The notes below the pieces were generated by a model. The model did not search any database. It was given only the letters and a program-made list of their open reading frames with translations, and had not been told where the DNA came from. A stretch of DNA of 64,000 nt, taken from positions 3,744,001 to 3,808,000 of the forward strand of contig OZ244937.1 of NCBI GenBank assembly GCA_965222075.1, written 5' to 3'. The position numbers were made by a program, and so were the translations under genes. Every line of letters starts with the position of its first letter. Position 1 is the stretch's first letter. This document shows, one piece after another, positions 10,998 to 30,538 of the stretch. Source of the stretch: Candidatus Latescibacterota bacterium. Its GTDB lineage: Bacteria > Latescibacterota > UBA2968 > GCA-2709665.

Positions 10998-11064
10998 CCA
11001 CAGCCTGGTATCGAAAACAGAACCCACCTTCTCTGGCTGTATGCTTCTGATACGCCGTCATTTA

Positions 11065-11097
11065 CCTGTCTGCGTGCGTGCCACACGCACAGGCAGG
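11065..11097. repeat. Mini-palindrome insertion (33 bp, in frame)
   Basis: CCTGTCTGCGTGCGTGCCACACGCACAGGCAGG; removing it restores RRHL|W. Confidence 0.85.
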
Positions 11098-11254
11098 TGG
11101 GAAGCATAGTTTCTTGTGAACTCTACGCAAAAGCAAGAGAAGGTACAATTTCCTTGCGAGATCCTCGATCTCCTTTGTGGGTTGCAATTGCCTTTAGTCG
11201 CTTAGCCGCTTCGTTGGCTAAAGTCCAGTTACATCTCATTTAGGATTGCTATAC

Positions 11255-13690: not shown

Positions 13691-13949
13691 GTCGCTGCCC
13701 CCTCTCATCAGGATTGGCAATATGTATACTTGTGCTCTTTGCTGTAAACGCTTTCTGGATGAGGTATATTAGAAAGTTGTGGACGGGTACAGAAAATGAG
13801 CGTATCCTTGAGTATCAACAAAACCCAAAATCCCTCGGTCGAGGGAGATTCGAGACACCTTCCGGAGACGTCTTCACCTGAGCGCGCAGATGGCTCAGGC
13901 GGGCATCTGCGCCACCCTCCATCCCTCCGAAGAAAGGAGCACCAACCCT

Positions 13950-15002
13950 ATGCAAACCCTCTCCCAACAGGTCAGCCGTCCCGTCTACGACGACCTCGGA
14001 GCGCCCGAACCGATCGAACCGATCTTCGCCGAAGGCACCGACCCCACGCTCGAAGACTGGCAGGACCGGCGCGCGGTCCTGAAAGAACGCTGGAACGCGG
14101 TCCTGGGCACCCCCTCCCTGGACATTTTCGACACGCGCCCGGAAATCATCAACACCTTCGAACAGCCTGCATACCGGGCCACCGTATTCAAACAGCCCAC
14201 CGGACCTGACACCCGCCAGACCCTTCTGCTCATGGAACCCGGGCAGGCGGCCCATTCCCCCCGTCCCGGTATGGTCGTCCCCTTCTACCACCCGGACCCG
14301 ATGGCCGGCATCGACCTGGACACGCAGGAGCCCATCGCCGAAGACCGAAATATCCAGTTCGGCCGCCACCTCGTGCAGCAGGGAAACGTGGTGGTCTGCA
14401 CCGAAGCCTTCCCGTTCAACACCGTACCCGAACCCGCAGACAACAAAAGCTTTTCCTGGTGGCAGGCCGCCGCAGACAAACTGCTGAAAGACCATCCCAA
14501 CTGGACCGGCATCGCCAAACTCGTCTGGGACGCCAGCCGGGCCGTCGACCTCCTGCTGGACCAGCCCGACATCGACCGGAAACGAATCGGCATCATGGGA
14601 CACTCCCTGGGCGGAAAAATCGCCTTCTACACCGGCGCGCTCGACGAACGCATCCAGGCCATTGTCGCCTCCGACTTCGGCATGGGGTTCAACTTCACCA
14701 ACTGGGATGCCCCCTGGTACCTGGGCGACCAGATCCACCGCCCCGACTTCACCCTTGCCCACCACCACCTCCTGGCCCTGCACGCCCCCCGGTCCTTCTT
14801 CCTCTTCGGCGGCGAAGCGGACCGCCCTGCAACCTGGCAGTACATCAACGAAGCCAAAAAAGTCTACGCCCTCTACGGCAAACCGGACGCCGTCGGCTTC
14901 TTCGACCACGCCTCCGGCCACCGCCCCACCGGTGAATCGTTGAAAATCGCCTACCGCTGGCTGGCGGAACGGTTCGGGCTGGCGGAACAGCCGTGGGAGT
15001 GA
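13950..15002 (+). CDS. Alpha/beta hydrolase (dienelactone hydrolase / acetylxylan esterase-like)
   Basis: GHSLGG nucleophile elbow, D..RAVDLL...PDID..RIG, G..D, GH; AAGGAG RBS before ATG 13950. Confidence 0.88.
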   Translation: MQTLSQQVSRPVYDDLGAPEPIEPIFAEGTDPTLEDWQDRRAVLKERWNAVLGTPSLDIFDTRPEIINTFEQPAYRATVFKQPTGPDTRQTLLLMEPGQAAHSPRPGMVVPFYHPDPMAGIDLDTQEPIAEDRNIQFGRHLVQQGNVVVCTEAFPFNTVPEPADNKSFSWWQAAADKLLKDHPNWTGIAKLVWDASRAVDLLLDQPDIDRKRIGIMGHSLGGKIAFYTGALDERIQAIVASDFGMGFNFTNWDAPWYLGDQIHRPDFTLAHHHLLALHAPRSFFLFGGEADRPATWQYINEAKKVYALYGKPDAVGFFDHASGHRPTGESLKIAYRWLAERFGLAEQPWE

Positions 15003-15048
15003 CCCCTCCCCCGGCCCCTCCCCGAAACGGGGAGGGGAGAGCGTGCTC

Positions 15049-15210
15049 CTAAGAGGGTTGGGAGGTAGAGCGTTTCTTCAGTTGGGCCACGATACGACTC
15101 AGAACACCTTCAAAATTCTGTCTTATATCTTCATTCTGGATTCGTATAACCTTCAAACCACGAGATGCAAGAATACCATCACGTTCTGCAACAATATTTC
15201 TCTTCCTCAT
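15049..15210 (-). pseudogene. DUF559 endonuclease with a 231-bp in-frame internal deletion
   Basis: Reads MRKRNIV|AERDGILASRG...; junction at 15190/15191 relative to the intact copy. Confidence 0.85.
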
Positions 15211-15381
15211 CCTACAACCGTCACCTCCTCCGCCTTTCTCCCCCTTTCCTCTCAGGAAAGGGGGCCGGGGGGATAGGTCACTCAGTCCGATGGCTGGCAG
15301 AACAGTTCGGGCTGGCGGAACAGCCGTGGGAGTGACCCCTCCCCCAGCCCCTCCCCGAAACGGGGAGGGGAGAGGGTGCTC

Positions 15382-15774
15382 CTAAGAGGGTTGGGAGGTA
15401 GAGCGTTTCTTCAGTTGGGCCACGATACCACTCAGAACACCTTCAAGATTCTGTCTTATATCTTCATTCTGGATTCGTATAACCTTCAAACCACGAGATG
15501 CAAGAATACCATCACGTTCTGCATCGTACTTGACCTGCTGATGATGAACACCGCCATCCACTTCGATCACCAATCCAGCAGCATGACAGTAGAAATCCAC
15601 AATAAATCCATCAATGACCTGCTGCCGACGAAAGTGAAACCCCTCCAGTCGATTGGCGCGAAGACGTTCCCAGAGAATGCCCTCTTCTTCCGTCATCTGA
15701 CCACGAAGCATTCTTGCCCGCTTCACCTTATCCAGATCCACTCTCTGCCCAATAACAATATTTCTCTTCCTCAT
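15382..15774 (-). CDS. DUF559 / Vsr-like endonuclease-domain protein, intact copy 1
   Basis: ARMLR..MT.EE..LWERLR, FRRQ..I..FIVDFYC....LVIEVDGGVH, D.ERD..L...G..VIRI.N; GGAGGTG RBS upstream. Confidence 0.92.
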   Translation of the reverse strand: MRKRNIVIGQRVDLDKVKRARMLRGQMTEEEGILWERLRANRLEGFHFRRQQVIDGFIVDFYCHAAGLVIEVDGGVHHQQVKYDAERDGILASRGLKVIRIQNEDIRQNLEGVLSGIVAQLKKRSTSQPS

Positions 15775-15945
15775 CCTACAACCGTCACCTCCTCCGCCTT
15801 TCTCCCCCTTTCCTCTCAGGAAAGGGGGCCGGGGGGATAGGTCACTCAGTCCGATGGCTGGCAGAACGGTTCGGGCTGGCGGAACAGCCGTGGGAGTGAC
15901 CCCTCCCCCAGCCCCTCCCCGAAACGGGGAGGGGAGAGGGTGCTC

Positions 15946-16338
15946 CTAAGAGGGTTGGAAGGTAGAGCGTTTCTTCAGTTGGGTCACGATACCACTCAGA
16001 ACACCTTCAAGATTCTGTCTTATATCTTCATTCTGGATTCGTATAACCTTCAAACCACGAGATGCAAGAATACCATCACGTTCTGCATCGTACTTGACCT
16101 GCTGATGATGAACACCGCCATCCACTTCGATCACCAATCCAGCAGCATGACAGTAGAAATCCACAATAAATCCATCAATAACCTGCTGCCGACGAAAGTG
16201 AAATGCCTCCAGTCGATTGGCGCGAAGACGTTCCCAGAGAATGCCCTCTTCTTCCGTCATCTGACCACGAAGCATTCTTGCCCGCTTCACCTTATCCAGA
16301 CCCACTTTCTGCCCAATAACGATATTTCTTCTCCTCAT
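15946..16338 (-). CDS. DUF559 / Vsr-like endonuclease-domain protein, intact copy 2
   Basis: Near-identical to 15382-15774, offset by 564 bp. Confidence 0.92.
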   Translation of the reverse strand: MRRRNIVIGQKVGLDKVKRARMLRGQMTEEEGILWERLRANRLEAFHFRRQQVIDGFIVDFYCHAAGLVIEVDGGVHHQQVKYDAERDGILASRGLKVIRIQNEDIRQNLEGVLSGIVTQLKKRSTFQPS

Positions 16339-16405
16339 CCTACACCCGTCACCTCCTCCGCCTTTCTCCCCCTTTCCTCTCAGGAAAGGGGGCCGGGGGG
16401 ATAGG

Positions 16406-18820
16406 TCACTCATACCGCAGCGCATCCACCGGATTCGCCAGTGCAGCCTTCATAGACTGGGCGCCCACCGTCAGAAGGGCGATCCCCAGCGCCAGAACGC
16501 CGCATAGGATGAAGATTTCCGGTCCGGGATCAATCCGATACGCAAAGTCCTGAAGCCATCTGTTCATCACATAGTAGGCAGCCGGCCAGGCCAGCAGATT
16601 GGCAACCACAACAAGCTTTGCAAATTCTCCGGAAAGCAGGAGAACGAGGTTGGATACTGAAGCCCCCAGCACCTTACGGATACCGACCTCCTTGGTTCGC
16701 CGCGTTACGGAGAGAGACGCCAGCCCAAGAAGTCCCAGACAGGAAATCAGGATCGCAAACAGAAAGGTGTACCCCGTAATTCTGATCCATCGGTCTTCAT
16801 TCTGGTACTGGCGAACGAGATTATCTTCGAGGAAGGAATACTGAAACGGCTGGTCCAACGCGACAGCCTCCCACGTCTTCTTCAGAAAGGCGATAGTGCC
16901 GGCAATGTCCTCGGGCTGGATCCGGATCAGTACGAAAGGCCCATACGACCGGGGTCCAGTGTGCAGCAGCAACGGCTGAATTCCCCTGTGCAGGGAATCG
17001 ATATGGAAATCCCTTACAACGCCGATGACGGTCAGTTCTCCCAACTTCTCCCAGTCCAGATTTTTCAGGGTCTTCCCGACGGGATCCTCCCATCCGAGCA
17101 TTCCGGCCAGCTTCTCATTCACAAGCGCGAACGATTGTGGATCGGACGGGGATGTCGGTGAGAAATTCCGTCCTGCAACAAGCTGGATCTTCAGGGTCTC
17201 AAGATAATCGGGATCTACCCGGATGACCCGAACCCTTAGACGCTCGCCGTCTTCTTTTTCCATGCCTATGCCTCTGGATCCGGTCGTAAACGCCCGGTCA
17301 CTGATGGTTGCGCTGACAACCCGAGGAGATTTGGAAACTTCCACTTTGTACCGTTCGCTGACAGCGTCTGAATTCGCCACCATGGCAGGAACAACCACCA
17401 CCTGTTCTTCACGGTACCCCAGATCCTTTTCTCTCAGGTAGTTGAGCTGTTGGACCATCATCGCGGCGCTGATCATCAGTGCGATCGACAGAGCATACTG
17501 CACAACCACCAGCGCACGCGTACCCACGTTTCGCCCCCCAATCCGCACCTGGCCTTTGAGCACCTCTACCGCGTGGAGCCGGGGCAGTACTACGGCCGGA
17601 TAACTGCCCGCCGCAAGTCCTGCAATGCCCACCAGCCCCAGAAGCATGAGCGTTGTTCCCCAACTGTCCAAATAGGAAATGCTCAAATTCTTGCGCGCCA
17701 GATCATTGAAGACGGGCAGAAACATCTCGGCCAGAGCGATTCCCATCACCAGGGCAAACATGCTTAAAAGCAACGCCTCGCCCCAGAACTGCTGCATAAG
17801 CTGCCTCCGCTGCGCTCCCAGCACTTTTCGCATTCCCACCTCTCGTGCGCGTCCCACGGACCGGCCGACCGCCAGAGTCATATAATTGATACACGCGATT
17901 GCAAGCACCAGAAGCGCAAGCCCGGAAAGCAAGTAGGAGTAGACCACGTTGCCATTGGCTTCGTACGAACTTCTGACCTCAGAATTCAGGTAAACGTCCC
18001 GCAGCGGCTGGAGGCGCAGCAAAAACCCGTCCTCTGCGTCCCTCACGTGACCGTGCGTTTTGAACAACCCGATCCTGTCTCCCAGGTGCTTCTCGGCAAA
18101 GGGCGGAAACACCGCTTCCAAAGCCTCCGCATCCTGTCCTTCCACAAGCTGCACGTACATAGAGGCATTCCCACCACCCCAATCCGTATTCACAGCATAA
18201 TACCTGTGGTGTTCAATCGGGATCAGAAGACCGAATTTCAGGCTGGAGGTCTCGGGAACGTCTCGCATCACCCCCGTGACGGTAAAGTCCTGAGCTCTAA
18301 ACGACAGCGGTTTCCCCAGAGCCGCAGCGTAACCGTCTTCCAAATTTCCAAAGAGCTTGCGCGCGACCGTCTCGCTGATCACCACACCATCCGGCTGGCG
18401 CAGGGCCGTCGCAGGGTCTCCCGCCAGGAGTGGGAAGGAGAATATCTCCAGAAAGTCCGCGTCCACCAGGCCGAAGGATTCCCGAAAGGCGATCTCCTGA
18501 TATGAAACCTGCGTCCTGGAGCGCATAAATCCGCTCGCCCGGATAACACCCGGAAACTCCTCCCGTAGCGCTGCCGCAAGAGAAGCAGGGTGAAGCGTGG
18601 AAAACCTGACACTGCCATCAGGCCTGGTCTCCCGTACAATCACCCGAAAAATCCGGTCAGAATTCTCGTGGAAGGCATCGTACTGCCATTCGTGCCGGAC
18701 GAACAGGAAGATCAGAATACAACACGCAAGGCCGACCGCCAGTCCAAACACGTTGATGAACGCATACAGCTTCTGCCGGAGCACGTTTCGCACAGCCACG
18801 ATCAGGTAGTTTCGGAACAT
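16406..18820 (-). CDS. MacB/FtsX-family ABC permease, paralogue 2
   Basis: MFRNYL, IACINY, RAREVGMRKVLGA, RTKEVGIRKVLGA, ends ANPVDALRYE. Confidence 0.95.
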   Translation of the reverse strand: MFRNYLIVAVRNVLRQKLYAFINVFGLAVGLACCILIFLFVRHEWQYDAFHENSDRIFRVIVRETRPDGSVRFSTLHPASLAAALREEFPGVIRASGFMRSRTQVSYQEIAFRESFGLVDADFLEIFSFPLLAGDPATALRQPDGVVISETVARKLFGNLEDGYAAALGKPLSFRAQDFTVTGVMRDVPETSSLKFGLLIPIEHHRYYAVNTDWGGGNASMYVQLVEGQDAEALEAVFPPFAEKHLGDRIGLFKTHGHVRDAEDGFLLRLQPLRDVYLNSEVRSSYEANGNVVYSYLLSGLALLVLAIACINYMTLAVGRSVGRAREVGMRKVLGAQRRQLMQQFWGEALLLSMFALVMGIALAEMFLPVFNDLARKNLSISYLDSWGTTLMLLGLVGIAGLAAGSYPAVVLPRLHAVEVLKGQVRIGGRNVGTRALVVVQYALSIALMISAAMMVQQLNYLREKDLGYREEQVVVVPAMVANSDAVSERYKVEVSKSPRVVSATISDRAFTTGSRGIGMEKEDGERLRVRVIRVDPDYLETLKIQLVAGRNFSPTSPSDPQSFALVNEKLAGMLGWEDPVGKTLKNLDWEKLGELTVIGVVRDFHIDSLHRGIQPLLLHTGPRSYGPFVLIRIQPEDIAGTIAFLKKTWEAVALDQPFQYSFLEDNLVRQYQNEDRWIRITGYTFLFAILISCLGLLGLASLSVTRRTKEVGIRKVLGASVSNLVLLLSGEFAKLVVVANLLAWPAAYYVMNRWLQDFAYRIDPGPEIFILCGVLALGIALLTVGAQSMKAALANPVDALRYE

Positions 18821-18875
18821 GGAGATTCCCTCTCAAAAGACGTGAAATGTGAGAGGCTCACCACCCCTGGAAGAA

Positions 18876-18966
18876 GCCAGAACACCGGAGAAAGGGTGGA
18901 TGGGTCCGCCTTTCTCCCCCTTTCCTCTCAGGAAAGGGGGCCGGGGGGATAGGTCACTCATACCGC
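18876..18966. repeat. Solo A arm; direct repeat of 19776-19866
   Basis: About 90 bp near-identical at a 900-bp offset; hairpin CCCCCTTTCCT-CTC-AGGAAAGGGGG at 18916-18940. Confidence 0.9.
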
Positions 18967-19006
18967 TGGCAGTCAGCGGTCAGGGCTCAGCGGAAATCGC
19001 TGCGTC

Positions 19007-19684
19007 TCACTCAGTTTGTTCATCCTTATCGATCCACCCGTCCAGCAGGTGAATCACCTTGCGACCATACGACGCGTTCTTCTCCGAATGCGTCGCCTGG
19101 ACAATCGTCGTCCCTCCCTGATTCAATTTCGTGAACAGCGCCATCACCTCTTCCCCCTGTGCCGAATTCAGATTCCCGGTCGGCTCATCGGCCAAGATCA
19201 GCTTCGGACTCGTGATCACCGCCCTGGCAACTGCCACGCGCTGCTGCTCCCCGCCGGAAAGCTGATTCGGAAACAGGTCTTTCTTCGCCACAATATTGAA
19301 CCGGTCCAGCATATCGCAAACCAGTCCCCTGCGCTCCGATCCCCTGACCTTCTTGTACAGCAGCGGCGTCTCCAGGTTCTCGTACACCGTCAACTCGTCA
19401 ATCAGGTGGTAACTCTGGAACACAAACCCGATATGGTGCTTGTGCAGATCCGTCCGCTTCCGCTCGTTCAACTTGTGCGTCGGTTCGTCGAAAAAGTAAT
19501 ACGCCCCATTCGACGGCTCATCGAGCATTCCCAGGATATGCAGCAGCGTGGACTTCCCGGCGCCCGACGGCCCCATAATCGAAACGAACTCCCCCTCCTC
19601 GATTTCAAGGTCGATATTCCTCAGCACGAAGGTCTTCACAAAACCCGTTGAGTAGTATTTCTCGATCTCTCGAAGCCGAATCAT
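19007..19684 (-). CDS. ABC ATP-binding protein (LolD/MacB-like)
   Basis: [36 protein letters not shown]; AAGGAGG RBS before ATG 19684. Confidence 0.95.
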
Positions 19685-19775
19685 CGTGTGCCTCCTTAAG
19701 GCGCATGGCATTTGGTTAATTGGTATTTCAGCGATTTTTGAAACGGGTCGGACAAAGTGTGGAGAACGGATTCTT

Positions 19776-19866
19776 GCCTGAACACCGGAGGAAGGGTGGA
19801 TGGGTCCGCCTTTCTCCCCCTTTCCTCTCAGGAAAGGGGGCCGGGGGGATAGGTCACTCATACCGC
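19776..19866. repeat. Solo A arm overlapping the stop codon of permease 3
   Basis: Hairpin at 19816-19840; GGTCACTCATACCGC contains the permease stop (19854-19856). Confidence 0.9.
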
Positions 19867-22226
19867 AGCGCATCCACCGGATTCGCCGTCGCCGCCCGGA
19901 TCGCCTGCACGCTCACGGTCAACAGTGCGACAAACAGGGCCAGCCCTCCGGACGCTGCAAATACCCACCAGCCGATGTCGATGCGATAGGCAAAATCCTG
20001 CAGCCAACGGTCCAGGATGTAATACGCGATTGGCGAAGCCACCACAAAGGCGATAAGCACCAGCCGGGCGAAGTCCCTGGACAACAGGAGCACAATATTC
20101 TCCACCGTCGCCCCCAGCACCTTCCGGATGCCGATCTCCTTCGTCCGCTGCTGGGCCGTAAAAGAAGCAAGCCCGAACAGCCCCAGGCAGGCAATGAAAA
20201 TGGCCAGTCCCGAAAAAACCTCGAACACCCGGGCCATGCGCTGCTCGCTCTCGTAAAGCCGCAGGTAGTCCCCCTCCAGAAAGGAATACGCGAAGGGCCG
20301 ATGGGGCGCGAACTTCTCCCAGACCTGCCGCACGGCAGAAACAGCATCGGCCACGTTGCCGGGCTGCAACCGGACGGCAACATAAGAACGGCCCCAGCGG
20401 AGAAACGGAAGCACCAGGGGTTGGACCCGGTGGCGGAGCGACCCGTAGTGGAAGTCCTCCACAACGCCGATGACCCTGCCTTCTCGGCCTGTCAGCCTCA
20501 TTCGCTTGCCGACCGGCTCTTCCCACCCGAGCGCCGAGGCGGCAGACTGGTTGATGAGAAACGCCGTGGAGTCCGAGGCGAAGTCTCCGGGAGCGAAGTT
20601 CCGACCCCGGACGACCCGCAACCCCAGCGCTTCGGTATAATGCTCGTCGACCATCACGTAGGTAAGTGAGGTCTCCTCGTAGTTGGCAGGCTGCTCAGGC
20701 ACGAACCGCGTGGAATCAAAGCGGTGGCCCGGCAGGCCCTCGGTAACCGAGGCCACAGCCACCTGCGCAAGCGCTCCGAGCCGCTCCCTGAATGCAGCAA
20801 CCTGCCTGCCCAGACTCCTGGCCCCATGCACCACAAGCACGTGTTCTTTATCGAACCCGAGCCGCTTGTGCTGCATATAGCGGAGTTGCTCGTGAACAAC
20901 CAGCGTGCCGATGAGCATTCCAATAGATATGCAGAACTGCGCCACAACCAGCCCGTTGCGCAGCCGGTCCCCGCCGAAGCGACCTGCAACACGTCCCCTG
21001 AGCACCTGCACAGGCCAGAAGGACGACAGGAAAAATGCCGGATACATCCCTGCCAGCACGGCCACCGCCGTCACAATTCCGCCCAGCGCCAGAACCGCGA
21101 ACGGCGAACTCAGGCTTCCGGTTGTCAGCTGTTTGCCGACAAAGCCGTTGAGGAACGGCAACCCCAGTTCGCTCAACCCCAGCGCCAGAACCACCGCCAG
21201 CGCCACATACAGCGACGACTCGACGAGAAACTGGCGAACGAGCTGCGCACGCTGGGAACCCAGAACTTTCCGAACACCCACCTCCCGGGCGCGGTTGGTC
21301 GAACGCGCTGTGGACAGGTTCACAAAATTGATACACGCCAAAAGCAGGATAAAGACGGCAACAAGAGAAAAAATATAAACGTTCAAAATATCGCCGGTCG
21401 GCTCCAGTTCCAACTCCAGATGCGAGTGCAGATGAATATCCGTCAACGGCTGCAACAGGAACCGGCTGTAGCCTCCTGCACGGGAAAAACGCTTCTCCAG
21501 TCCGCGACGCTCGACATGTTCCCGGAGCTTCGTCTCCACCCCGGACGCTTTTGTCCCCTCCCTCAAAACCACATACGTATAGACGGTGGCCGACCCCCAA
21601 CCCTTCTGTCGTCGTTCGACGATCGGAAGCGTTCTCAAAGGTGCGAGAAAATCGAAGTGAAAATGGGACTGGAGAGGAAACCCCCTCACCACGCCCGTGA
21701 CGCGCAGAAGCGTACCGTCGTTGAGTTCCAGCGGCTGTCCGAACGGGTCCTGGTCCCGGAAATACCGCCGCGCCGTCTCTTCCGTAATCACAACCGCATC
21801 CGGATCGCGCAGCGCCGTTTCCGGATCTCCCTCGACGAAGGGCGCGGTGAACACATCGAAAAAACCCTCCTCCACATAAAAAAAGTCACCTTCAATCACG
21901 TACTCCCGGCCGTGGCGCAGCGTCCGGCGCTCACGCCTCATACGCACCGTCCGCTCCACCTCCGGTAAATCCGCCAGCGCTTCAGCGACGGGAATAGGCC
22001 CTTTAGGAATCGTCCATTCATTGTCGCCGTAGCGAGCGTCCCACAGAACGCGATAGATCCGGTCCGCCTTTTCGTGGAACCGGTCGTAGCTCACCTCGTC
22101 CAGCACGAACAGCAGGATCAGGATGCAGCACGCCATCCCCACGGCCAGGCCCAGAATGTTGATGGCCGAATAGACCCGGTGCCGCAGCAAATTCCGCACC
22201 GCAACCTTCAGATCATTCTTAAACAT
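19854..22226 (-). CDS. MacB/FtsX-family ABC permease, paralogue 3
   Basis: LACINFVNLSTARS..RAREVGVRK, RTKEIGIRKVLGA, ends ANPVDALRYE. Confidence 0.95.
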   Translation of the reverse strand: MFKNDLKVAVRNLLRHRVYSAINILGLAVGMACCILILLFVLDEVSYDRFHEKADRIYRVLWDARYGDNEWTIPKGPIPVAEALADLPEVERTVRMRRERRTLRHGREYVIEGDFFYVEEGFFDVFTAPFVEGDPETALRDPDAVVITEETARRYFRDQDPFGQPLELNDGTLLRVTGVVRGFPLQSHFHFDFLAPLRTLPIVERRQKGWGSATVYTYVVLREGTKASGVETKLREHVERRGLEKRFSRAGGYSRFLLQPLTDIHLHSHLELELEPTGDILNVYIFSLVAVFILLLACINFVNLSTARSTNRAREVGVRKVLGSQRAQLVRQFLVESSLYVALAVVLALGLSELGLPFLNGFVGKQLTTGSLSSPFAVLALGGIVTAVAVLAGMYPAFFLSSFWPVQVLRGRVAGRFGGDRLRNGLVVAQFCISIGMLIGTLVVHEQLRYMQHKRLGFDKEHVLVVHGARSLGRQVAAFRERLGALAQVAVASVTEGLPGHRFDSTRFVPEQPANYEETSLTYVMVDEHYTEALGLRVVRGRNFAPGDFASDSTAFLINQSAASALGWEEPVGKRMRLTGREGRVIGVVEDFHYGSLRHRVQPLVLPFLRWGRSYVAVRLQPGNVADAVSAVRQVWEKFAPHRPFAYSFLEGDYLRLYESEQRMARVFEVFSGLAIFIACLGLFGLASFTAQQRTKEIGIRKVLGATVENIVLLLSRDFARLVLIAFVVASPIAYYILDRWLQDFAYRIDIGWWVFAASGGLALFVALLTVSVQAIRAATANPVDALRYE

Positions 22227-22908: not shown

Positions 22909-22920
22909 AGCTTACTCCTC

Positions 22921-24174
22921 TCAATCTTTTAAGATGAGCTTTTCTATCTCCTCATAATGCTCATACGACGACGTCACAACGCGTTCCTCCGGCTCCAGCC
23001 CCTCCAGCACCTCGAAAAACTCCGGATTCTGCCGGCCGATCCGCAGCGGCCGACGTACCGCAAACGCCCCCGACGGGTCCACCACAAACACCCAGTTCCC
23101 TCCCGTGGTCTGATAAAATCCTCCCCTGGCCAGGAGCACGGCCTCGGAAAGGTCCCCCAGGGCCAGCCGGATGTGGAGCGTCTGTCCCCGGCGGATGTCT
23201 TCGGGCATTTCTCCTGCAAACTCGAGATCAACCTCAAACCGGCCGTCTAAAATCTCCGGATAGACCTTCTTGATCACCAGGTGGTAGGTCTTCCCGGCAA
23301 GATCGAACATACCGGTCTGCCCCGGATTGATCCGATGGATATAAAACTCATCGATGTCCGCCCGGGCCTTAAACCCGTCCAGCACATCGACCTGCCCCAA
23401 ACGCTGTCCTTTGGACTTCAACTCCCCGATCTCCGCATTCAGCGACGTCAACTGCCCGCTCACCGGCGCCTTTAAAATCAAATTTTCCAGATTCCGTTTC
23501 ACAGCCTTCAGATTCAACTCTAACTTTTTAACCGAAGCCTCCATATGTGCAATCTGGCCCTGGCGGTACAGAGAATCCTGCCTCACGGTCTGAACCATAA
23601 ACTCCTGCCGCTTCAACTGGTATTCGTAATTTTCCTTGCTTTCCGCATAATCTTTCCTTGCAATCAAATTCCGCTTCATCAATTCCTCATGTCTTAAATA
23701 TTCCCGTCTCGCCTGCTGAACCTGGTATTCAATATTAATCAATTCCTCCTGCCGTCTAATCGTCTGCTGTTCCATATTAATGCGGGTATTCTCCATATTA
23801 TTAATCTGTTCGAATAAAACGGCCTCCTGGTTCATCACGCTCAGTTCCAGCATCGGGTCCGACAGCCTCAGAAGCGGCTCCCCTTTGGTGACCATACTCC
23901 CCTCTTCCACAAAGACCTCCTCCACCTGTCCGCCGACCAGAGCATCCAGATAGATCGTCTGAATGGGCAGCATCGTCCCCCGAACCGGAATAAACTCCTG
24001 AAACGGCCCCCGCTCAACCGTAGAAATCGTAATCCGCTCGACCTTCACGTTCAGCTTCGCACTGTGGTCCCCCAGCAAGAATTCGTAGAGAACCGCACCA
24101 ACAAAAAGCCCGGCCAGGGCCATCCCCGCAATCCGTCTCGGGGGCCACCGGCGCTTCCGGATCTTCCGGTCCAT
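22921..24174 (-). CDS. Efflux periplasmic adaptor subunit (MacA/HlyD-like)
   Basis: MDRKI start, single TM, GGQVEEVFVEEG..V.KG..L, coiled-coil hairpin, APVSG, IGRQNP..FEVLEGL. Confidence 0.92.
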   Translation of the reverse strand: MDRKIRKRRWPPRRIAGMALAGLFVGAVLYEFLLGDHSAKLNVKVERITISTVERGPFQEFIPVRGTMLPIQTIYLDALVGGQVEEVFVEEGSMVTKGEPLLRLSDPMLELSVMNQEAVLFEQINNMENTRINMEQQTIRRQEELINIEYQVQQARREYLRHEELMKRNLIARKDYAESKENYEYQLKRQEFMVQTVRQDSLYRQGQIAHMEASVKKLELNLKAVKRNLENLILKAPVSGQLTSLNAEIGELKSKGQRLGQVDVLDGFKARADIDEFYIHRINPGQTGMFDLAGKTYHLVIKKVYPEILDGRFEVDLEFAGEMPEDIRRGQTLHIRLALGDLSEAVLLARGGFYQTTGGNWVFVVDPSGAFAVRRPLRIGRQNPEFFEVLEGLEPEERVVTSSYEHYEEIEKLILKD

Positions 24175-24355
24175 CGCCAGCCCTTCTTCCGTTCCCCCCG
24201 TCGACGACCGGCTCTGCGAACCACCGGCTCCGGACTCCGGACTCCAGTTCACAATCTTGTCCACCAGATCGTCTTTGGCACGCCCTGGTTCTTCGCTCAA
24301 CACAATTCACCTCATCATTTTTTCATCCGTACACCGATCCTCAACTTCTCACTTC

Positions 24356-24976
24356 CTACAAACTCCCCGTCACCCCCAACCGCTCAACCTCTCCTCTCAA
24401 CCGATGCCGCCCCCGATACAGCCAGACCTTCAACGTTCCGACCGGCACCTGGAGCTCCTCCACAATCTCATGATAAGATCGTTCCCTTACATAATGCAAC
24501 CAGACCGCCTCGCGCTGCCGGTCCGGCAGCGCCTGGATGCTCTGCATCACAATCTCCCGGCGCTCCTTCCGCACCATCACGGCTTCGGGATCTTCGTGAG
24601 GCGCCGGGCGCCACCGCGCCTGAAGCGCGGGTACGGCATCGTCTACTTCATCCAGCCAATTTCTCTGCGTCCGCCGGGTCCGCAAATAGGATGTACACAC
24701 ATTCAGAGCAATGCGCGTCAGCCAGGTAGAGAAAGTGGCCTGCCCCCGAAAATTGGCCAGCCCCTGAAAGGCCTTCATAAAAACCATCTGGACCAGGTCC
24801 TCTGTCTCATCTCCCTTCCTTGTGCACCGATGCACAATCGCACGCACCCGGTCACGGTGCGTCCTGTAAAGAACTTCAAAAGCCCCGTCATCTCCCGCAA
24901 GCGCCCGATCGATCAGCGCCGCATCCGATTCAGGCGCACACTGCAATGTTTCAGGATCGTTTTTCTTTCCCCTCAC
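24356..24976 (-). CDS. ECF sigma-70 factor
   Basis: D..AF..LY, EDLVQ.VF.KA, FSTWL.RIA.N (region 2); LP.RQREA..L......SY.EI...L.VPVGT.K..L.RGR (region 4). GTG start at 24976 after GAGGGAG. Confidence 0.92.
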   Translation of the reverse strand: MRGKKNDPETLQCAPESDAALIDRALAGDDGAFEVLYRTHRDRVRAIVHRCTRKGDETEDLVQMVFMKAFQGLANFRGQATFSTWLTRIALNVCTSYLRTRRTQRNWLDEVDDAVPALQARWRPAPHEDPEAVMVRKERREIVMQSIQALPDRQREAVWLHYVRERSYHEIVEELQVPVGTLKVWLYRGRHRLRGEVERLGVTGSL

Positions 24977-25041
24977 AACAGAACTCCCTCGGTTTTCATA
25001 TCCCGGATGCCTGCAAAACACCGAACTTCTGTTCAGAAGAA

Positions 25042-25057
25042 AGCGACAACCGTGCCA
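25042..25057 (-). promoter_or_regulatory. sigma54 -24/-12 promoter upstream of the ECF sigma / adaptor / ABC operon
   Basis: Minus strand TGGCACG-GTTG-TCGCT; IHF-like TTTCAACTGCTTA at 25077-25089. Confidence 0.75.
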
Positions 25058-25114
25058 ACACTGGTTTTTTATTATTTTTCAACTGCTTATATATGTTTCC
25101 CCCAAAAAAACGAT

Positions 25115-25163
25115 CAAAAAAGTGTCCGCTGGCGATACACAAGTGTCCGCTAACGGACACTTC
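25115..25163. promoter_or_regulatory. Tandem palindromic enhancer (candidate bEBP UAS), copy 1
   Basis: AGTGTCCGCTGGCGATACAC-AAGTGTCCGCTAACGGACACTT; repeated at 35691-35739. Confidence 0.7.
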
Positions 25164-25192
25164 ACACTGCACCACTCCCACACACAGGCCAA

Positions 25193-25890
25193 ACATCAAA
25201 CTCCCCGTCACCTCCTCCGCCTTTCTCCCCCTTTCCTCTCAGGAAAGGGGGCCGGGGGGATAGGTCACTCAGTCCGCTGGCTGGCAGAACAGTTCGGGCC
25301 GGCGGAACAGCCGTGGGAATGACCCCTCCCCCAGCCCCTCCCCGAAACGGGGAGGGGAGAGCGTGCTCCTAAGAGGGTTGGAAGGTAGTTGGCGCGAAGA
25401 CGTTCCCAGAGAATGCGCTCTTCTTCCGTCATCTGACCACGAAGCATTCTTGCCCGCTTCACCTTATCCGGATCCACTCTCTGCCCAATAACGATATTTC
25501 TCTTCCTCATCCTACACCCGTCACCTCCTCCGCCTTCCTCCCCCTTTCCTCTCAGGAAAGGGGGCCGGGGGGATAGGTCACTCAGTCCGCTGGCTGGCAG
25601 AACAGTTCGGGCCGGCGGAACAGCCGTGGGAATGACCCCTCCCCCAGCCCCTCCCCGAAACGGGGAGGGGAGAGGGTGCTCCTAAGAGGGTTGGCGAGAA
25701 GGCGTTCCCAGAGAATGCCCTCTTCTTCCGTCATCTGACCACGAAGCATTCTTGCCCGCTTCACCTTATCCAGGTCCACTCTCTGTCCAATAACGATATT
25801 TCTTTTACTCATCCTGCACCCCTCACCTCCCCCGCCTTTCTCCCCCTTTCCTCTCAGGAAAGGGGGCCGGGGGGATAGGTCACTCATACC
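25193..25890. mobile_element. Tandem array 2 of the DUF559 hairpin element (A-B-deleted gene-A-B-deleted gene-A)
   Basis: A hairpins at 25227, 25540, 25842; B hairpins at 25335, 25648; DUF559 remnants lack 251 and 262 bp. Confidence 0.85.
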
Positions 25891-28219
25891 TTAGCGCATC
25901 CACCGGGTTCGCCCGTGCCGCACGCATTGCCTGCGACCCTACCGCCAGCAGCACGATCGCCAGCATCAACACCCCACCCAAAACGAACGTCCCGACCCCC
26001 AGCTCAATCCGATACGCAAAATCCTGCAACCACCGCTCCATCGCATAATACGCCACCGGCCAGGCGATGACACTGGCAACAGCCACGAGCACGAGGAACT
26101 CCCTGGAAAGCAGGGACAGGATATTGGGAACCGTGGCGCCCAGCGCCTTCCGAATGCCGATCTCCTTCGTCCGCCGCGCCACCGCAAGCGCCGTCAGCCC
26201 GAACGCGCCGAGACAGGCGATGAAAACCGCGAACAGCGCGGAATACTGTACGATTCGGTTCCAGCGTTCCTCCTTCCTGTACTGCCGGTCCACCTCCTCG
26301 TCAAGAAAAGAATACTGAAACGGAAGGTCCGGTGCGACCTCCTGCCACTTCTCCTCCAAAAAGGCCAGCGTGCCCGGGATGTTCTCCGGGCGGATCCGGA
26401 TTAGCAATCGGGTAAACCCCGGACTGAGCCTCAACACCGCCGGCCCGATCTTGTGGTGCAGGGAGCGAAAATGGAAGTCCTGCACCACGCCGATCACAGT
26501 AATATCCCGCTTGTTCATCCGCAGCATCCTGCCCGCCACCGGCCTGTCCCACCCCAAACGCCGGACCAGGGCCTCGTTCACGATAATGGAAGCCCTGGAA
26601 TCCGTATTCCGTGTATCGAAATCCGCTCCCTCCAGGAGGGAGATATCCATCGTCTCCAGGAAGTCATAGCCGACAAAGACCATCTCAACACCCATTTCAT
26701 TCCCTTCATGCTCAATGCTGTTCCTGTACCTCGTCCTGCTGCTCAGCGCGTTGCTGGTCCCTGTCACGCCCAGAACCCCGTGGTGTCCCAGCAACTCGTT
26801 CCGGTACACCCCGGGTAGATCCGAATCTCGCTCCCGCAGGTCCCAAATATGGATGTACAGGACGTGATCACTCTCAAAGCCCAGCGGTTTTGTCCTCAGA
26901 TACTCAAGTTGCCGGGCCATCAGCAGCGCACTGACCACCAGGAAGACGGACAGGGCAAGCTGGAAAACCACAAGCGCCCGGCCGAACAGGCTGGACCCTC
27001 CGAGGCTGAGCCTTCTTTTCAACACCGCAACGGACTGAAACCCTGACAGTACGAAGGCCGGGTAGCTGCCTGCGGCCAGCCCGACGGCCAGCGCCAGTCC
27101 GAGCAAAAAGACCAGGCCCACGCCATCCGCCTGATCGGCCAGGGCGAGGTCCTGACCGGCCAGGCTGTTGAAGGCCGGCAGGAGGAGTTCCGCCAGAGCG
27201 ACCCCGGCCACCAGGGCCATCGCGCTCAACAGCATCGACTCTCCCAGGAACTGCTTCATCAGCTGCGTCCGAGACGCACCCACCACCTTGCGCATCCCCA
27301 CCTCCCGGGCGCGGGCGAACGACCGGCCCACAGCCAGAGTCATAAAGTTCACGCACGCAATCACCAGCACCAGCAGGGCAATTCCCAGAAGAATATAAGA
27401 AAAGGCCGGATTGCTCGCGGGTTTGGGTCCCCGGGTGCCCGGATTGAGATGCACCTCCAGGAGCGGCTGGAGGCCCATCCTGGCGTCCCGCTTTTCTCCC
27501 AGCCACATCTTTAACAACTCCGGAAACCGTTCCTCCAGATCGGCCGGACGTCTGTGCTCCGGAAGCAGCAGGTAGGTCTGGATATCTTCCTGGCTCCAGC
27601 CCCTGAGCTCACCCCCGGCCTCGAACGGAGCCAGAAAATCGAACCGGATGCTGGAGTTCTTCGGAACGGGCTTCGCAATCCCGGTCACAACAAAATCCCA
27701 AACCACCGGCGGGCGGCCCCATATCTCAACGGAAAGGACTTTGCCCAGGGGGTCTTTATCTCCAAAGTACTTCCGTGCCGCCGCCTCGGTGATCACCACA
27801 GAGTACGGACCTTCCAGCACCGTCGTCGGGTCTCCCTTCACCAGGGGAAAGGTGAACACCTCCAGGATGGCCGGATCGACAAAGCGGAAACTTTCTCGAA
27901 ACGACCGGTCCCCCTGCATAACAGAGAAAGAGCCCCAGCCAATCCTGACGCTCCGGACGTCCGGAAACGCCTCCGCCAGCGCCGGCCCCAGCGCGTCCGA
28001 CGTAACGCCCGACGGCTCGAACCCGGTATCATCCATATAGACCCTGTAGATCCGATCCGCGTTCTCGTGGAACGCGTCGTACGTCCACTCCCGCCGGACG
28101 AACAGAAACGTCAGCACACAAAACGCAATCCCGATCGAAAGACCCGTCACGTTGATAAAAGAATAGACCTTATGGCGCACCAGATTGCGAAACGCTACTT
28201 TCAGATAATTTCCGAGCAT
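25880..28219 (-). CDS. MacB/FtsX-family ABC permease, paralogue 4
   Basis: MLGNYLKVAFRNL, IACVNF, RAREVGMRK, RTKEIGIRK, ends ANPVDALRYE. Confidence 0.95.
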   Translation of the reverse strand: MLGNYLKVAFRNLVRHKVYSFINVTGLSIGIAFCVLTFLFVRREWTYDAFHENADRIYRVYMDDTGFEPSGVTSDALGPALAEAFPDVRSVRIGWGSFSVMQGDRSFRESFRFVDPAILEVFTFPLVKGDPTTVLEGPYSVVITEAAARKYFGDKDPLGKVLSVEIWGRPPVVWDFVVTGIAKPVPKNSSIRFDFLAPFEAGGELRGWSQEDIQTYLLLPEHRRPADLEERFPELLKMWLGEKRDARMGLQPLLEVHLNPGTRGPKPASNPAFSYILLGIALLVLVIACVNFMTLAVGRSFARAREVGMRKVVGASRTQLMKQFLGESMLLSAMALVAGVALAELLLPAFNSLAGQDLALADQADGVGLVFLLGLALAVGLAAGSYPAFVLSGFQSVAVLKRRLSLGGSSLFGRALVVFQLALSVFLVVSALLMARQLEYLRTKPLGFESDHVLYIHIWDLRERDSDLPGVYRNELLGHHGVLGVTGTSNALSSRTRYRNSIEHEGNEMGVEMVFVGYDFLETMDISLLEGADFDTRNTDSRASIIVNEALVRRLGWDRPVAGRMLRMNKRDITVIGVVQDFHFRSLHHKIGPAVLRLSPGFTRLLIRIRPENIPGTLAFLEEKWQEVAPDLPFQYSFLDEEVDRQYRKEERWNRIVQYSALFAVFIACLGAFGLTALAVARRTKEIGIRKALGATVPNILSLLSREFLVLVAVASVIAWPVAYYAMERWLQDFAYRIELGVGTFVLGGVLMLAIVLLAVGSQAMRAARANPVDALRYE

Positions 28220-28595
28220 ACGTCCCATCCCTCCAAAAGCGTGACTTGCAGAACCTCAGGACTTCATTCAGCCATTCGCCACCAGCCATCTCAGCTCATA
28301 GCCGGACACTTTCGTCCTGAGAAGCCGTTTTAAAATTCCCGGTGAGTTCCCGACACGCCCGCTCACGCGTCTCGCCTCTGGGATCCCCCCACCGGCGCGC
28401 CTGCGGGCTGGCGCCCCTAACTTGCCGACTCCTCCGGTTTGGTGTGAGAGGAAGGGGCTTTTCCGCGCAGATCCCCCCAGCACCTCCGCCCAAAAACGCC
28501 CAAAAGGTCCGCTGGGCACAAACGCCTGCTTACACCACAGGGGCAGTTCGCGGAAAAGCAGCCCCCGCGGCGTTTGAGCGGCGCCCTTCTTTTTC

Positions 28596-28627
28596 GGCCT
28601 TTTTCTTGGGCGAACAAGAAAAAGGCC
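28596..28627. repeat. 13-bp perfect hairpin in a structured intergenic region
   Basis: GGCCTTTTTCTTG-GGCGAA-CAAGAAAAAGGCC. Confidence 0.7.
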
Positions 28628-28689
28628 AGGAGTAAAAGAACCGTTGAACCCGGGGATCTACCCAAAGGTTATTTTCCAAGCAGCAGCTT

Positions 28690-29508
28690 CTAAAACTCCC
28701 GCAAACGAATCGAACCATTCACCGCCTTCAAATAAAGCAGGCGCCCGCCCCCGTTTATATCTCCGTCAACCGATTTGCTGATGCGGCCCTTCACCGTAAC
28801 CGGAAAATCCGTCTCGATATGCCCGTTCACCGTCGCTGCTTTCAGGTGCGCCTTGAACCCCCTGGGCAATGCAACCTCAATGCTGCCATTTGTCGTTGAA
28901 GCCCGAATTTCATGCTCATCCTGGCCCCTTTTGGAAAACGCCGCCTCAATCCTGCCGTTCGTCGTACTCGCCTGAATCGCGCCCTGAATCTCCGAGAGCC
29001 GGATATTCCCATTCTTCGTACTCGCCTGGATCGCCCCTTTAACCTCTGCAAACCGGATGCGGCCGTTGGCCGTTTCCGCCTCAATCGCTCCTGAAACAGC
29101 ATCGACCTGGATGCCTCCATTAACCGATTCCAATTCCAGGTCGATCTCTTTGGGCACCGTCAACGTATAACTCACGCTCACGCTCCGATTCCCTCGCAAG
29201 CGCAGCTCCGTCTGGATATCGATCCGGTCCGCCGTCCGGTCGATCCGCACCTCCGTCTTCTCCAGCAGCTTCCGCGCCTCTTCCTCGCTGCGGGCACGCG
29301 CTTTCTTTTTCGCCTGCACCTTCACCTCATTTCGATCCCAGGATCCAATCGTAATTCCCCCGTTCACGTTCACAAGCGTCAGTCGTCCTCCCGGCTGAAA
29401 CTGCATCGAACGCTCGATAACCTCCTGCTCCGTATACTCACCGGCGCCACAGACAACAGGAACAAGACAGAGACTGAACATCGCAACCAGAATGAAAATC
29501 GCCATCAT
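28690..29508 (-). CDS. DUF4097 family beta-strand-repeat (adhesin-like) secreted protein
   Basis: Signal peptide; repeated (T/V)xNGxI motifs (SVNGGI, TANGRI, TKNGNI, TTNGRI, TTNGSI, TVNGHI); L.VP and I.TDFP motifs. Confidence 0.85.
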   Translation of the reverse strand: MMAIFILVAMFSLCLVPVVCGAGEYTEQEVIERSMQFQPGGRLTLVNVNGGITIGSWDRNEVKVQAKKKARARSEEEARKLLEKTEVRIDRTADRIDIQTELRLRGNRSVSVSYTLTVPKEIDLELESVNGGIQVDAVSGAIEAETANGRIRFAEVKGAIQASTKNGNIRLSEIQGAIQASTTNGRIEAAFSKRGQDEHEIRASTTNGSIEVALPRGFKAHLKAATVNGHIETDFPVTVKGRISKSVDGDINGGGRLLYLKAVNGSIRLREF

Positions 29509-29534
29509 AGGACCTTAACCTCCTGTAATGTGAG

Positions 29535-30538
29535 ACATCAAACTCCCCGTCACCTCCTCCGCCTTTCTCCCCCTTTCCTCTCAGGAAAGGGGGCCGGGGG
29601 GATAGGTCACTCAGTCCGCTGGCTGGCAAAACAGTTCGGGCCGGCGGAACAGCCGTGGGAATGACCCCTCCCCCAGCCCCTCCCCGAAACGGGGAGGGGA
29701 GAGCGTGCTCCTAAGAGGGTTGGAAGGTAGAACATTTCTTCAGTTGGGTCACGATACCACTCAGAACACCTTTTGGCGCGAAGACGTTCCCAGAGAATGC
29801 CCTCTTCTTCCGTCATCTGACCACGAAGCATTCTTGCCCGCTTCACCTTATCCAGATCCACTCTCTGCCCAATAACAATATTTCTCTTCCTCATCCTACA
29901 ACCGTCACCTCCTCCGCCTTTCTCCCCCTTTCCTCTCAGGAAAGGGGGCCGGGGGGATAGGTCACTCAGTCCGCTGGCTGGCAAAACAGTTCGGGCCGGC
30001 GGAACAGCCGTGGGAATGACCCCTCCCCCGGCCCCTCCCCGAAACGGGGAGGGGAGAGCGTGCTCCTAAGAGGGTTGGAAGGTAGAGCGTTTCTTCAGTT
30101 GGGTCACGATACCACTCAGAACACCTTCAAGATTCTGTCTTATATCTTCATTCTGGATTCGTATAACCTTCAAACCACGAGATGCAAGAATACCATCACG
30201 TTCTGCGTCGTATTTGACCTGCTGCTGATGAACACCGCCATCCACTTCGATTACCAATCCAGCAGCATGGCAGTAGAAATCCACAATAAATCCATCAATG
30301 ACCTGCTGCCGACGAAAGTGAAACCCCTCCAGCCGATTGGCGCGAAGACGTTCCCAGAGAATGCCCTCTTCTTCCGTCATCTGACCACGAAGCATTCTTG
30401 CCCGCTTCACCTTATCCAGATCCACTCTCTGCCCAATAACAATATTTCTCTTCCTCATCCTACAACCGTCACCTCCTCCGCCTTTCTCCCCCTTTCCTCT
30501 CAGGAAAGGGGGCCGGGGGGATAGGTCACTCATACCGC
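29535..30538. mobile_element. Tandem array 3 of the DUF559 hairpin element (A-B-deleted gene-A-B-intact gene-A)
   Basis: A hairpins at 29569, 29924, 30488; B hairpins at 29677, 30032; first gene copy lacks 209 bp. Confidence 0.85.
30066..30458 (-). CDS. DUF559 / Vsr-like endonuclease-domain protein, intact copy 3
   Basis: Near-identical to 15382-15774. Confidence 0.92.
   Translation of the reverse strand: MRKRNIVIGQRVDLDKVKRARMLRGQMTEEEGILWERLRANRLEGFHFRRQQVIDGFIVDFYCHAAGLVIEVDGGVHQQQVKYDAERDGILASRGLKVIRIQNEDIRQNLEGVLSGIVTQLKKRSTFQPS

Follow-up and report, generated by a model that had tools for sequence, protein, structure and literature searches.

G/C-rich intrastrand-triplex repeats of the BoxC/PIT/TMECO class have been known since the 1990s without a mechanism for their spread. 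As described by Holder et al. (2015; PMC4666352), the motifs begin with a C-rich stem and N3–6, after which two G-rich stems, the second mirroring the first, are separated by N3, this second loop being TTA (type A) or CCG (type B). The motifs are intergenic and multi-copy, some are paired in inverted orientation, and rearrangement was far more frequent at their loci than at control loci. The paper reports no link to mobile elements and cites an earlier study in which PIT motifs had neither promoter nor terminator activity, and a text search of the paper gave no occurrence of ycjD or of any nuclease. Another described layout, that of REP/RAYT, places a small gene between two inverted hairpins (abstracts of PMC3337134 and PMC3116915). 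Here, we analyzed a 64,000-nt stretch of the genome of a Candidatus Latescibacterota bacterium (contig OZ244937.1, positions 3,744,001–3,808,000), hereafter the window, in which two hairpin arms bracket a gene of DUF559, a very widespread nuclease family of unknown function. We consider it probable that the gene and its arms constitute a small selfish cassette, which was founded between a hydrolase and a permease gene and spread by recombination that copied its flanks along.

Coordinates below are window positions unless marked as genome, Mb, or K-12. The repeat unit is 564 nt long and tandem, and on the minus strand it comprises arm A, the DUF559 gene, an inverted arm B, and a 52-nt spacer, the two arms being inverted relative to each other around the gene. 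Copies of the arms were 97–100% identical to each other. The sequence GAGTGACC occurred 14 times in the window versus 2.15 expected, a count reached in 0 of 100 shuffles; the 14 copies form one repeat family and so are not independent events. Arm A is 69 nt long counted from its TGA and contains an 11-bp hairpin (CCCCCTTTCCT/AGGAAAGGGGG), and a 91-nt stretch folds at −38.7 kcal/mol. The copy at 16340..16408 (−) reads TGACCTATCCCCCC + GG + CCCCCTTTCC + TGAGA + GGAAAGGGGG + AGAAAGGCGGAGGAGGTGA.. and stops just short of the DUF559 ATG; other full A arms lie at 15212–15280, 15776–15844, 25512–25580, 25817–25882, 29896–29964, and 30460–30528. Arm B, exemplified by the copy at 15333..15381 (+), reads, outer end first (TGACC), CCTCCCCC + AG + CCCCTCCCC + GAAA + CGGGGAGGGG + tail, and further B arms start at 15000, 15897, 25320, 25633, 29662, and 30017. 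The initial annotation, made from the letters of this DNA, stated that both arms begin alike; this applied to the three of the seven B arms in the window that start with GAGTGACC, the remaining four starting with GAATGACC and five B arms elsewhere in the genome with TAGTGACC.

Written on the G-rich strand, arm A is CCCCCTTTCC-TCTCA-GGAAAGGGGG-CCG-GGGGGATAGG, with 10-nt stems and a mirror match of 9/10, and arm B is CCCCTCCCC-GTTTC-GGGGAGGGG-CYG-GGGGAGGGG, with 9-nt stems, CTG or CCG as the second loop, and a mirror match of 9/9. The arms have the build of G/C-rich intrastrand triplex motifs of the BoxC/PIT/TMECO class and may form a triplex. The TMECO consensus letters (CCCTCNCCC...GGGNGAGGG...GGGNGAGGG) were not matched, the arm stems reading CCCCCTTTCC or CCCCTCCCC; judged by sequence, the arms are relatives of the triplex class and not strict TMECO.

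The gene between the arms matched DUF559 (PF04480) over model positions 4–108 of 109, with an E value of 2.1e-35 and a score of 121.3 bits (Pfam gathering cut-off, 20.6). The whole genome contains three intact copies, all within the window arrays: copy 1 at 15382..15774 (−; 130 amino acids), copy 2 at 15946..16338 (−), and copy 3 at 30066..30458 (−), the latter two with 95% and 98% amino acid identity to copy 1, respectively. The protein matched the DUF559 protein 3HRL at the sequence level (E 7e-21), and 3HRL was also the top solved match of its AlphaFold model (pLDDT 79.7; target TM 0.89, rmsd 2.0). In the same comparison of the model with solved structures, the catalytic domain of the homing endonuclease I-Bth0305I (PDB 3R3P) came second (E 3e-4, target TM 0.79), and Vsr ranked 25th. 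Across 37 aligned sequences, D60, E71, H77, and D84 were invariant and D73 was kept in at least 90%; these residues may form the catalytic site of what is predicted to be a Vsr-like PD-(D/E)xK nuclease. Homologues with 47–71% amino acid identity over the best aligned segment came from records labelled Cyanobacteria, Chloroflexota, Latescibacterota, Poribacteria, and others; one further homologue, 92% identical, was found in a sister Latescibacterota genome, and alignment A1 contains 36 homologues from other genomes at 51–71% amino acid identity. The initial annotation had assigned to arm A a ribosome-binding site for this gene. The GGAGGAGGTG motif is indeed present there; its GGAGG core ends 13 nt ahead of the ATG, which exceeds the usual spacing, and the site is putative.

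The outer ends of the arms coincide with the stop codons of neighboring genes. As the initial annotation had described, four permease open reading frames (ORFs) end at 16406, 19854, 25880, and 30526 (−), and each TGA consists of bases 4–6 of GAGTGACC; the four ORFs, of about 800 amino acids, carry MacB_PCD and FtsX domains. Permease 1 (16406..18820, −; 804 amino acids, C-terminus ...NPVDALRYE*) takes its stop at 16408–16406 from the A arm at 16340..16408, and permease 2 (19854..22226, −; 790 amino acids) takes its stop at 19856–19854 from a truncated solo A arm (19805..19856, −). The stops of permease 3 (25880..28228, −; 782 amino acids) and of the C-terminal ORF of permease 4 (30526..32271, −) also lie within A arms, the N-terminal part of permease 4 being in another frame (32265–32813). 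Convergent to permease 1, an alpha/beta-hydrolase (esterase-like) gene (13890..15002, +) has as its stop (15000–15002) the first three bases of B arm 1, the candidate founding B junction. Two more descriptions were accurate: an AT-rich permease ends with GAT GAG TAA at 11255 and has no arm, and an ABC ATPase gene ends with GAG TGA at 19007 without a flush arm, the arm head beginning 47 nt on, at 18959.

The initial annotation had interpreted these junctions as an element that targets or reconstitutes Glu-stop gene ends and inserts without damage. The arm does supply the stop codon, and the absence of damage was borne out by comparison of hydrolase orthologues, the neighboring gene being intact since the arm provides its stop. 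Orthologues without an arm (G005, G008; 64–67% identical) end with ...WVL* and ...WEL*, and those with an arm (G000, G001, G004) end with ...PWE followed by T|GACC; therefore, the arm appears to have replaced the last codon and the stop of the hydrolase, which we hold with moderate confidence on the basis of two outgroups from one genus.

Glu-stop specificity, however, did not stand. Site-specific recognition of GAG TGA gene ends would account for the five host genes in the window that end with GAG TGA within an arm, as well as for a contig of a Gemmatimonas-labelled metagenome-assembled genome (MAG; locus L012) with the same permease-end/arm junction. However, the GAG belongs to the host genes: it encodes the Glu of the permease family's RYE* end and the penultimate Glu of the hydrolase, where it is also found in the arm-less G008 orthologue. 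The four permease junctions share one copied 33-nt block, and the ATPase, with its GAG TGA end, has no flush arm. The flanks of arm copies elsewhere in the genome, once tabulated, were not random, and the triplet before TGACC was GAA (five B arms), TAG (five B arms and three A arms), GCG, or TGG. Independent flush TGACC heads followed AGG (a 521-codon ORF at 3.30 Mb), AAG (the HlyD gene of L012), GAT, or AAA, and in other phyla the overlap runs via the TAA of GACCTAA, following an ACC codon. Among the dispersed heads outside the A/B family in this genome, three of seven sit 0–1 nt from the stop of an ORF of 405–685 codons. The GAG is simply the host genes' own last codon, and recognition of Glu-stop ends, already contradicted by these data, is very unlikely. 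The repeat boundary does not lie at the stop codon either, because the copied block takes along about 33–55 nt of permease tail and about 20–51 nt of hydrolase tail.

Co-copying was seen in the permeases. The last 30 nt of the four arm-bearing genes were 95% identical, including synonymous sites, versus 64% at 30–60 nt from the stop; over the same last 30 nt, arm-bearing and arm-less paralogues were 74% identical, and arm-less paralogues were 69% identical among themselves. At the protein level, permeases 2–4 had 40–46% identity to permease 1. A maximum-likelihood tree of the nine full-length paralogues did not unite the arm-bearing permeases in a clade: permease 1 was placed as sister to an arm-less paralogue encoded at 0.66 Mb (support 99/99), and forcing the four together cost 83 log-likelihood units (approximately unbiased test, p 0.00085). 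Inheritance of the arms through permease gene duplication was ruled out by this tree. Thus, the four permease cases are not independent; as the initial annotation itself had foreseen, they look like a single block that spread between neighboring non-sister paralogues.

On the other side of the unit, the spacer (15281..15332, strand not assigned) consists of a copy of the last 45–51 nt of the hydrolase gene and TCACTCA, the reverse of the permease ...TGAGTGA; further spacers lie at 15845–15896, 25268–25319, 25581–25632, 29610–29661, and 29965–30016. In less diverged spacer copies (genome 3.830 and 3.838–3.840 Mb), the joint reads TCACTCATACCGCTGGCTG and can be read as a permease end and a hydrolase tail overlapping at TACCGC. 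The hydrolase-tail sequence GAACAGCCGTGG precedes 15 of 15 B-family arms of the genome, wherever they are located, and therefore all units should descend from the hydrolase/permease-1 junction. Copies also occur away from both genes. Three solo A arms at 1.71, 1.77, and 3.04 Mb follow a permease-like pseudo-tail, ...GCGGTATAGT|GACC, one base shorter than the real tail, with no permease gene present. In the sister species G001, at least five A+B doublets are dispersed, with the DUF559 gene deleted at identical end-points in each; like the solo arms, every doublet carries a permease-like pseudo-tail. The left block ends abruptly about 110 nt out, at a boundary that the copies share, and in the doublets some 20 nt of the hydrolase tail precede unrelated flanks. 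The permease and hydrolase genes themselves are absent at the solo-arm and doublet copies, and the dispersed copies run 20–110 nt past the arms into host-tail sequence. Gene-less doublets were dispersed in G001, G003, and G009.

Altogether, the window contains three arrays and two truncated solo A arms, the latter on either side of the ATPase gene. Array 1 (15000..16408, −), with three units between the convergent hydrolase and permease 1, has the order B1, DUF559 remnant (unit nt 95–324 deleted), A, spacer, B2, DUF559, A, spacer, B3, DUF559, A. Array 3 (25204..25882, −) is composed of A, DUF559 remnant, B, spacer, A, DUF559 remnant, B, spacer, and a terminal A of 67 nt, with unit nt 196–453 and 196–446 deleted in its remnants. 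In array 4 (29546..30528, −), A, an intact DUF559 gene, B, and a spacer are followed by A, a remnant (unit nt 196–404 deleted), B, a spacer, and a terminal A of 67 nt. Six of the 11 A heads in the window adjoin the 52-nt spacer rather than a gene, on which point the first reading of the locus had to be corrected. Non-intact units carry internal deletions with five distinct end-points (unit nt 95–324, 128–381, 196–404, 196–446, and 196–453), and tandem junctions fall at 5–7-nt microhomologies. Further degenerate arrays, in which all DUF559 copies are deleted and the B arms follow TAG TGA, were observed at genome 3838408–3840265 and 3830013–3830193; near 3.838 Mb, successive A arms are joined head to tail through ATGAG, a microhomology that the DUF559 start shares with a new arm head.

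Misassembly of a repeat-rich metagenome-assembled genome is hardly credible as the source of these arrays and of their copy numbers. In its favor, the genome consists of one metagenome contig, judged from relatives, and short-read contigs break at the arms; against it, the unit copies differ in point changes and in distinct internal deletions, the same deletion joints recur in independent DNA runs, and the sister species carries an orthologous hydrolase–B–A–permease junction. An integron attC or CRISPR array reading was also dropped: the 564-nt units are near-identical and therefore are not variable cassettes or spacers, and no search aimed at integrase or cas genes was made.

Filled and empty sites were found for a related cassette in genus g6 of the same order. 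This 542-nt DUF559 cassette (L004 1333–1874; 68% amino acid identity) ends exactly with GACC...GGTC, the TGA of the host ORF lying 1 nt outside. At the same site, G027 has the same cassette and G030 a 133-nt internally deleted derivative, and two species have other insertions. The site is empty at the sequence level in four species, with 9–16 unrelated nt instead, and in eight further species the flanks are at most 28 nt apart, which suggests empty sites from coordinates only. No target duplication was found at the filled/empty site. These alleles, seen for the g6 cassette and not at the window's own sites, demonstrate that in relatives the cassette was inserted as a discrete unit. L125 (G040) and G044 carry different AT-rich insertions, 618 and 409 nt long, at the g6 gene-end site, which looks like an insertion hot spot.

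Movement of the arms by transposition was weighed against these data. If the arms were REP/MITE-type ends moved in trans by another transposase (RAYT or IS200-type Y1) with DUF559 as cargo between them, two inverted hairpins around a small gene and the gene-less doublets dispersed in three related genomes would both be expected. However, the Y1 matches of the genome comprise one IS200-type gene with different hairpins and one broken copy, neither locus having an arm-type head, and RAYT was rejected as a candidate. Host tails beyond the arm ends would not move with fixed-end cutting, the g6 site has no target duplication, and the hairpins enclose one gene family and not varied cargo in 60 of 80 DUF559 loci (see below). 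We regard a transposase acting in trans as improbable. A cut-and-paste transposon or MITE was likewise rejected, with no target duplication at the g6 site and copies that extend beyond the inverted repeats. The intact IS200-type Y1 gene (genome 2071937–2072296, L091) has its own hairpins, CCCCTTCC...GGAAGGGG, upstream; their composition recalls the arms, and their sequence differs.

The association of such hairpins with DUF559 extends across phyla. A hairpin head was located at most 200 nt from the DUF559 gene in 60 of 80 loci, and the hairpin density was 4.6 per kb within 200 nt of DUF559 versus about 0.1 per kb beyond 400 nt (about 40-fold). The DUF559 gene's own stop lay within a hairpin head at 13 of the 80 loci. 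Heads were present in 31 of 41 related genomes, and none were found with reversed-pattern controls. In genus g6, four genomes with a close DUF559 gene had 93, 11, 14, and 193 heads, versus 0–7 in twelve without one; five genomes of other phyla had 0–9 heads, several of them next to DUF559 genes. A general link between DUF559 and ABC transporters was rejected, as it was seen at just four of the 80 loci, two of these from one MAG. Two loci of one Gemmatimonas-labelled MAG (L012, L054) have the order permease, arm A, DUF559, HlyD, ATPase, with the ATPase 77% identical to that of the window; their HlyD gene also ends with T|GACC, which suggests that the whole block was transferred horizontally or that the contig was mis-binned. 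In an Acetothermia MAG (L072), DUF559 lies between ABC ATPase and FtsX permease genes, the ATPase TAA being inside the hairpin head and the permease start overlapping the DUF559 stop.

Proximity to stop codons was surveyed with 166 distinct heads in 144 fetched loci, by considering ORFs of at least 100 codons that run towards a head and end between −90 and +200 nt from it (n = 110). Thirty-two of the 110 ended within 7 nt of the first base of the head, versus about six under a uniform spread. Twenty of these 32 ends fell at a single position, the TAA of GACCTAA; 46 ORFs run on past that position, and one third of random frames would stop there anyway. Frame-blind insertion together with tolerance of short C-terminal changes may explain the clustering. 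Closeness to stops is a trait of the hairpin family across many phyla, though not a universal one.

The same clustering could be expected if the arms were host 3′-end elements, such as mRNA stabilizers or termination modulators, with DUF559 as a passenger and the likeness of copies due to constraint and concerted evolution. Hairpins are also present in genomes without a close DUF559 gene, and nine of 11 dispersed hairpins in G023 and G027 face the end of a co-oriented upstream ORF. Such a function is nevertheless an unlikely origin. The whole cassette, with exact hairpin boundaries, is present or absent between species; the arms are near-identical between non-sister genes of 40–46% identity; pseudo-tails are scattered without their genes; and hairpins are enriched about 40-fold beside DUF559 across phyla. 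The arms have no terminator-like T tract, a consensus scan gave no promoter-like or terminator-like site at any arm, and the inactivity of PIT motifs as promoters or terminators, cited in PMC4666352, points in the same direction. An Rfam search of 14800–20000 gave nothing but sub-threshold, miRNA-like chance matches. The initial annotation had also supposed co-transcription with the host operon. RNA-library and DNA contigs from four of 21 sequencing runs (two of each kind) were placed on 15848–17400; the RNA contigs reach the DUF559 gene and arm A, and no RNA-library contig spans permease, arm, and DUF559, these being assembled contigs only, one of them from a solo locus.

The proposal of a selfish cassette that spreads by flank-copying recombination draws on observation for its anatomy, the co-copied tails, a permease phylogeny that the arms do not follow, presence or absence of the insertion among relatives, and the linkage across phyla; we infer the order of events and the role of the nuclease. 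The founding site would have been between the convergent hydrolase and permease genes, where the arm ends, reading (T)GACC outward, became attached to the two genes no more than one codon from their native stops; therefore, the T|GA of the arm would terminate both genes. Multiplication would then have proceeded by recombination that copies flanks along and not by cutting at fixed ends, so that every copy brings a piece of permease or hydrolase tail. Three routes can be envisaged: the cassette may be duplicated in tandem where short microhomologies occur, enter the conserved ...NPVDALRYE* tails of neighboring permease paralogues by gene conversion, or be copied to a small number of distant sites, while internal deletions would give gene-less A+B doublets. 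Recombinational copying is suggested because host tails are present past the arm ends, junctions fall at microhomologies, deletions are repeated, and target duplication is lacking, none of which seems to fit a transposase cutting at fixed ends. The DUF559 protein may cut at or near the hairpins, and repair of the break from a filled copy would spread the cassette, as in homing. Given the predicted nuclease fold and the insertion polymorphism, a homing-like process would be the most economical driver.

Several observations weigh against this account. Heads persist in genomes without a close DUF559 gene (45 in G020, 37 in G017, and 38 in G012), and the contrast is weak in genus g2, with up to 45 heads in the absence of a close gene, the related genomes not being independent samples in any of these head counts. 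In G034, the arm-A head (82 exact matches to a 25-mer pattern) is embedded in a longer dispersed repeat whose edge has no stop codon, and heads in G023 and G027 lie 1–100 nt past ORF ends and are not flush. The g6 empty-site comparison gave no clean junction signature. Ordinary RecA-driven conversion into divergent paralogues would be poorly served by some 30 nt of homology at 70–75% identity, and the data also fit older arms, one at each permease, that concerted evolution has kept similar. The array copy numbers come from one assembly. Summed over pairs, the three DUF559 copies in the window show 14 synonymous and 14 non-synonymous codon differences, and selection on them is not clearly strong; titles and abstracts naming DUF559 report no cleavage activity or target for these proteins.

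The ABC ATPase gene (19007..19873, −), the true start of which is probably internal to the ORF, has a 91-nt solo-A repeat on both sides, the two being 98% identical; the repeat on its downstream side includes the truncated solo A arm at 18905..18956 (−), 55 nt with GAG included, 47 nt past the ATPase stop and preceded by a spacer-like fragment, ..CTGACTGCCAGCGGTATGAG. Residues 1–804 of permease 1 were placed by tblastn on 30529–32904, that is, on permease 4, where the frame breaks near 32265–32271 into ORFs of 581 and 182 amino acids; this is either a frameshifted pseudogene or an assembly indel. The arm-less permease (11255–13720) lies in a low-GC island at 11000–14000 (38–45% versus about 57% around), possibly foreign. 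A second dispersed repeat family of about 130–165 nt, unrelated to the arms, was observed at 28350–28582 and at no fewer than 25 further genomic sites, including genome 537513–537727 and 3992526–3992690. Its matches of at least 120 nt were 81–97% identical except one at 77%, and it adjoins the three solo A arms at 1.71, 1.77, and 3.04 Mb.

The arms place this locus beside the triplex repeats, for which no mechanism of spread has been described. It is conceivable, though we advance it only tentatively, that DUF559 is the missing enzyme partner of BoxC/PIT/TMECO repeats, a homing-type cutter acting at or beside the folded repeat, with repair copying adjacent tails. If so, this would explain why the repeats hug or replace stops, why gene tails are duplicated, and why triplex-motif loci are rearrangement hot spots (as described in PMC4666352). 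In that case, the window would show the process still at work, a single founding insertion having reached four paralogous transporter genes by tail-guided conversion. Tail dragging, recurrent deletions, and the mismatch between arm and host phylogenies point to break-repair-type copying rather than fixed-end transposition. The locus also shows how elements can rest harmlessly on gene ends, because their first bases act as a stop codon; C-terminal codons and stops of genes beside such repeats may be element-derived, which should be considered in annotation.

Comparison with homing endonuclease genes, namely I-Bth0305I, revealed a similar predicted fold, presence or absence at one site (g6), and co-copying of flanks, as in co-conversion. 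In contrast to them, the window cassette has no intron or intein context, and its putative target is a repeated hairpin or gene tail and not one conserved gene site. Tandem arrays are not known to be typical of homing endonuclease genes. With REP/REPIN-RAYT systems, the cassette shares a single small gene between inverted palindromic repeats and the dispersal of gene-less doublets or singlets. Unlike those systems, its enzyme is a predicted PD-(D/E)xK nuclease and not a Y1 HUH transposase, its copies carry host flank, and its gene has three intact copies and moves between phyla.

The stem-loop order with a mirror G-rich stem is common to published BoxC/PIT/TMECO motifs and the window arms, whereas in the window the arms enclose a nuclease gene, coincide with stop codons, and belong to tandem units of 564 nt. 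The titles and abstracts of the literature naming DUF559, ycjD, or hairpin-head sequences contained no link between DUF559 or ycjD and these hairpins. In E. coli K-12, TMECO no. 9 (K-12 1351204–1351239) is located 168 nt downstream of ycjD, which encodes a DUF559 protein with 43% identity to that of the window (E 1e-31). The ycjD stop is inside a degenerate triplex motif, and a recoded duplicate of the ycjD tail lies between that motif and TMECO no. 9. Thus, the ycjD locus, next to fabI/envM, where BoxC was first seen, resembles the window in its DUF559 gene, the stop in a motif, and the duplicated tail; it differs in that it is a single copy without tandem units and has fabI and sapF as neighbors in place of permease tails.

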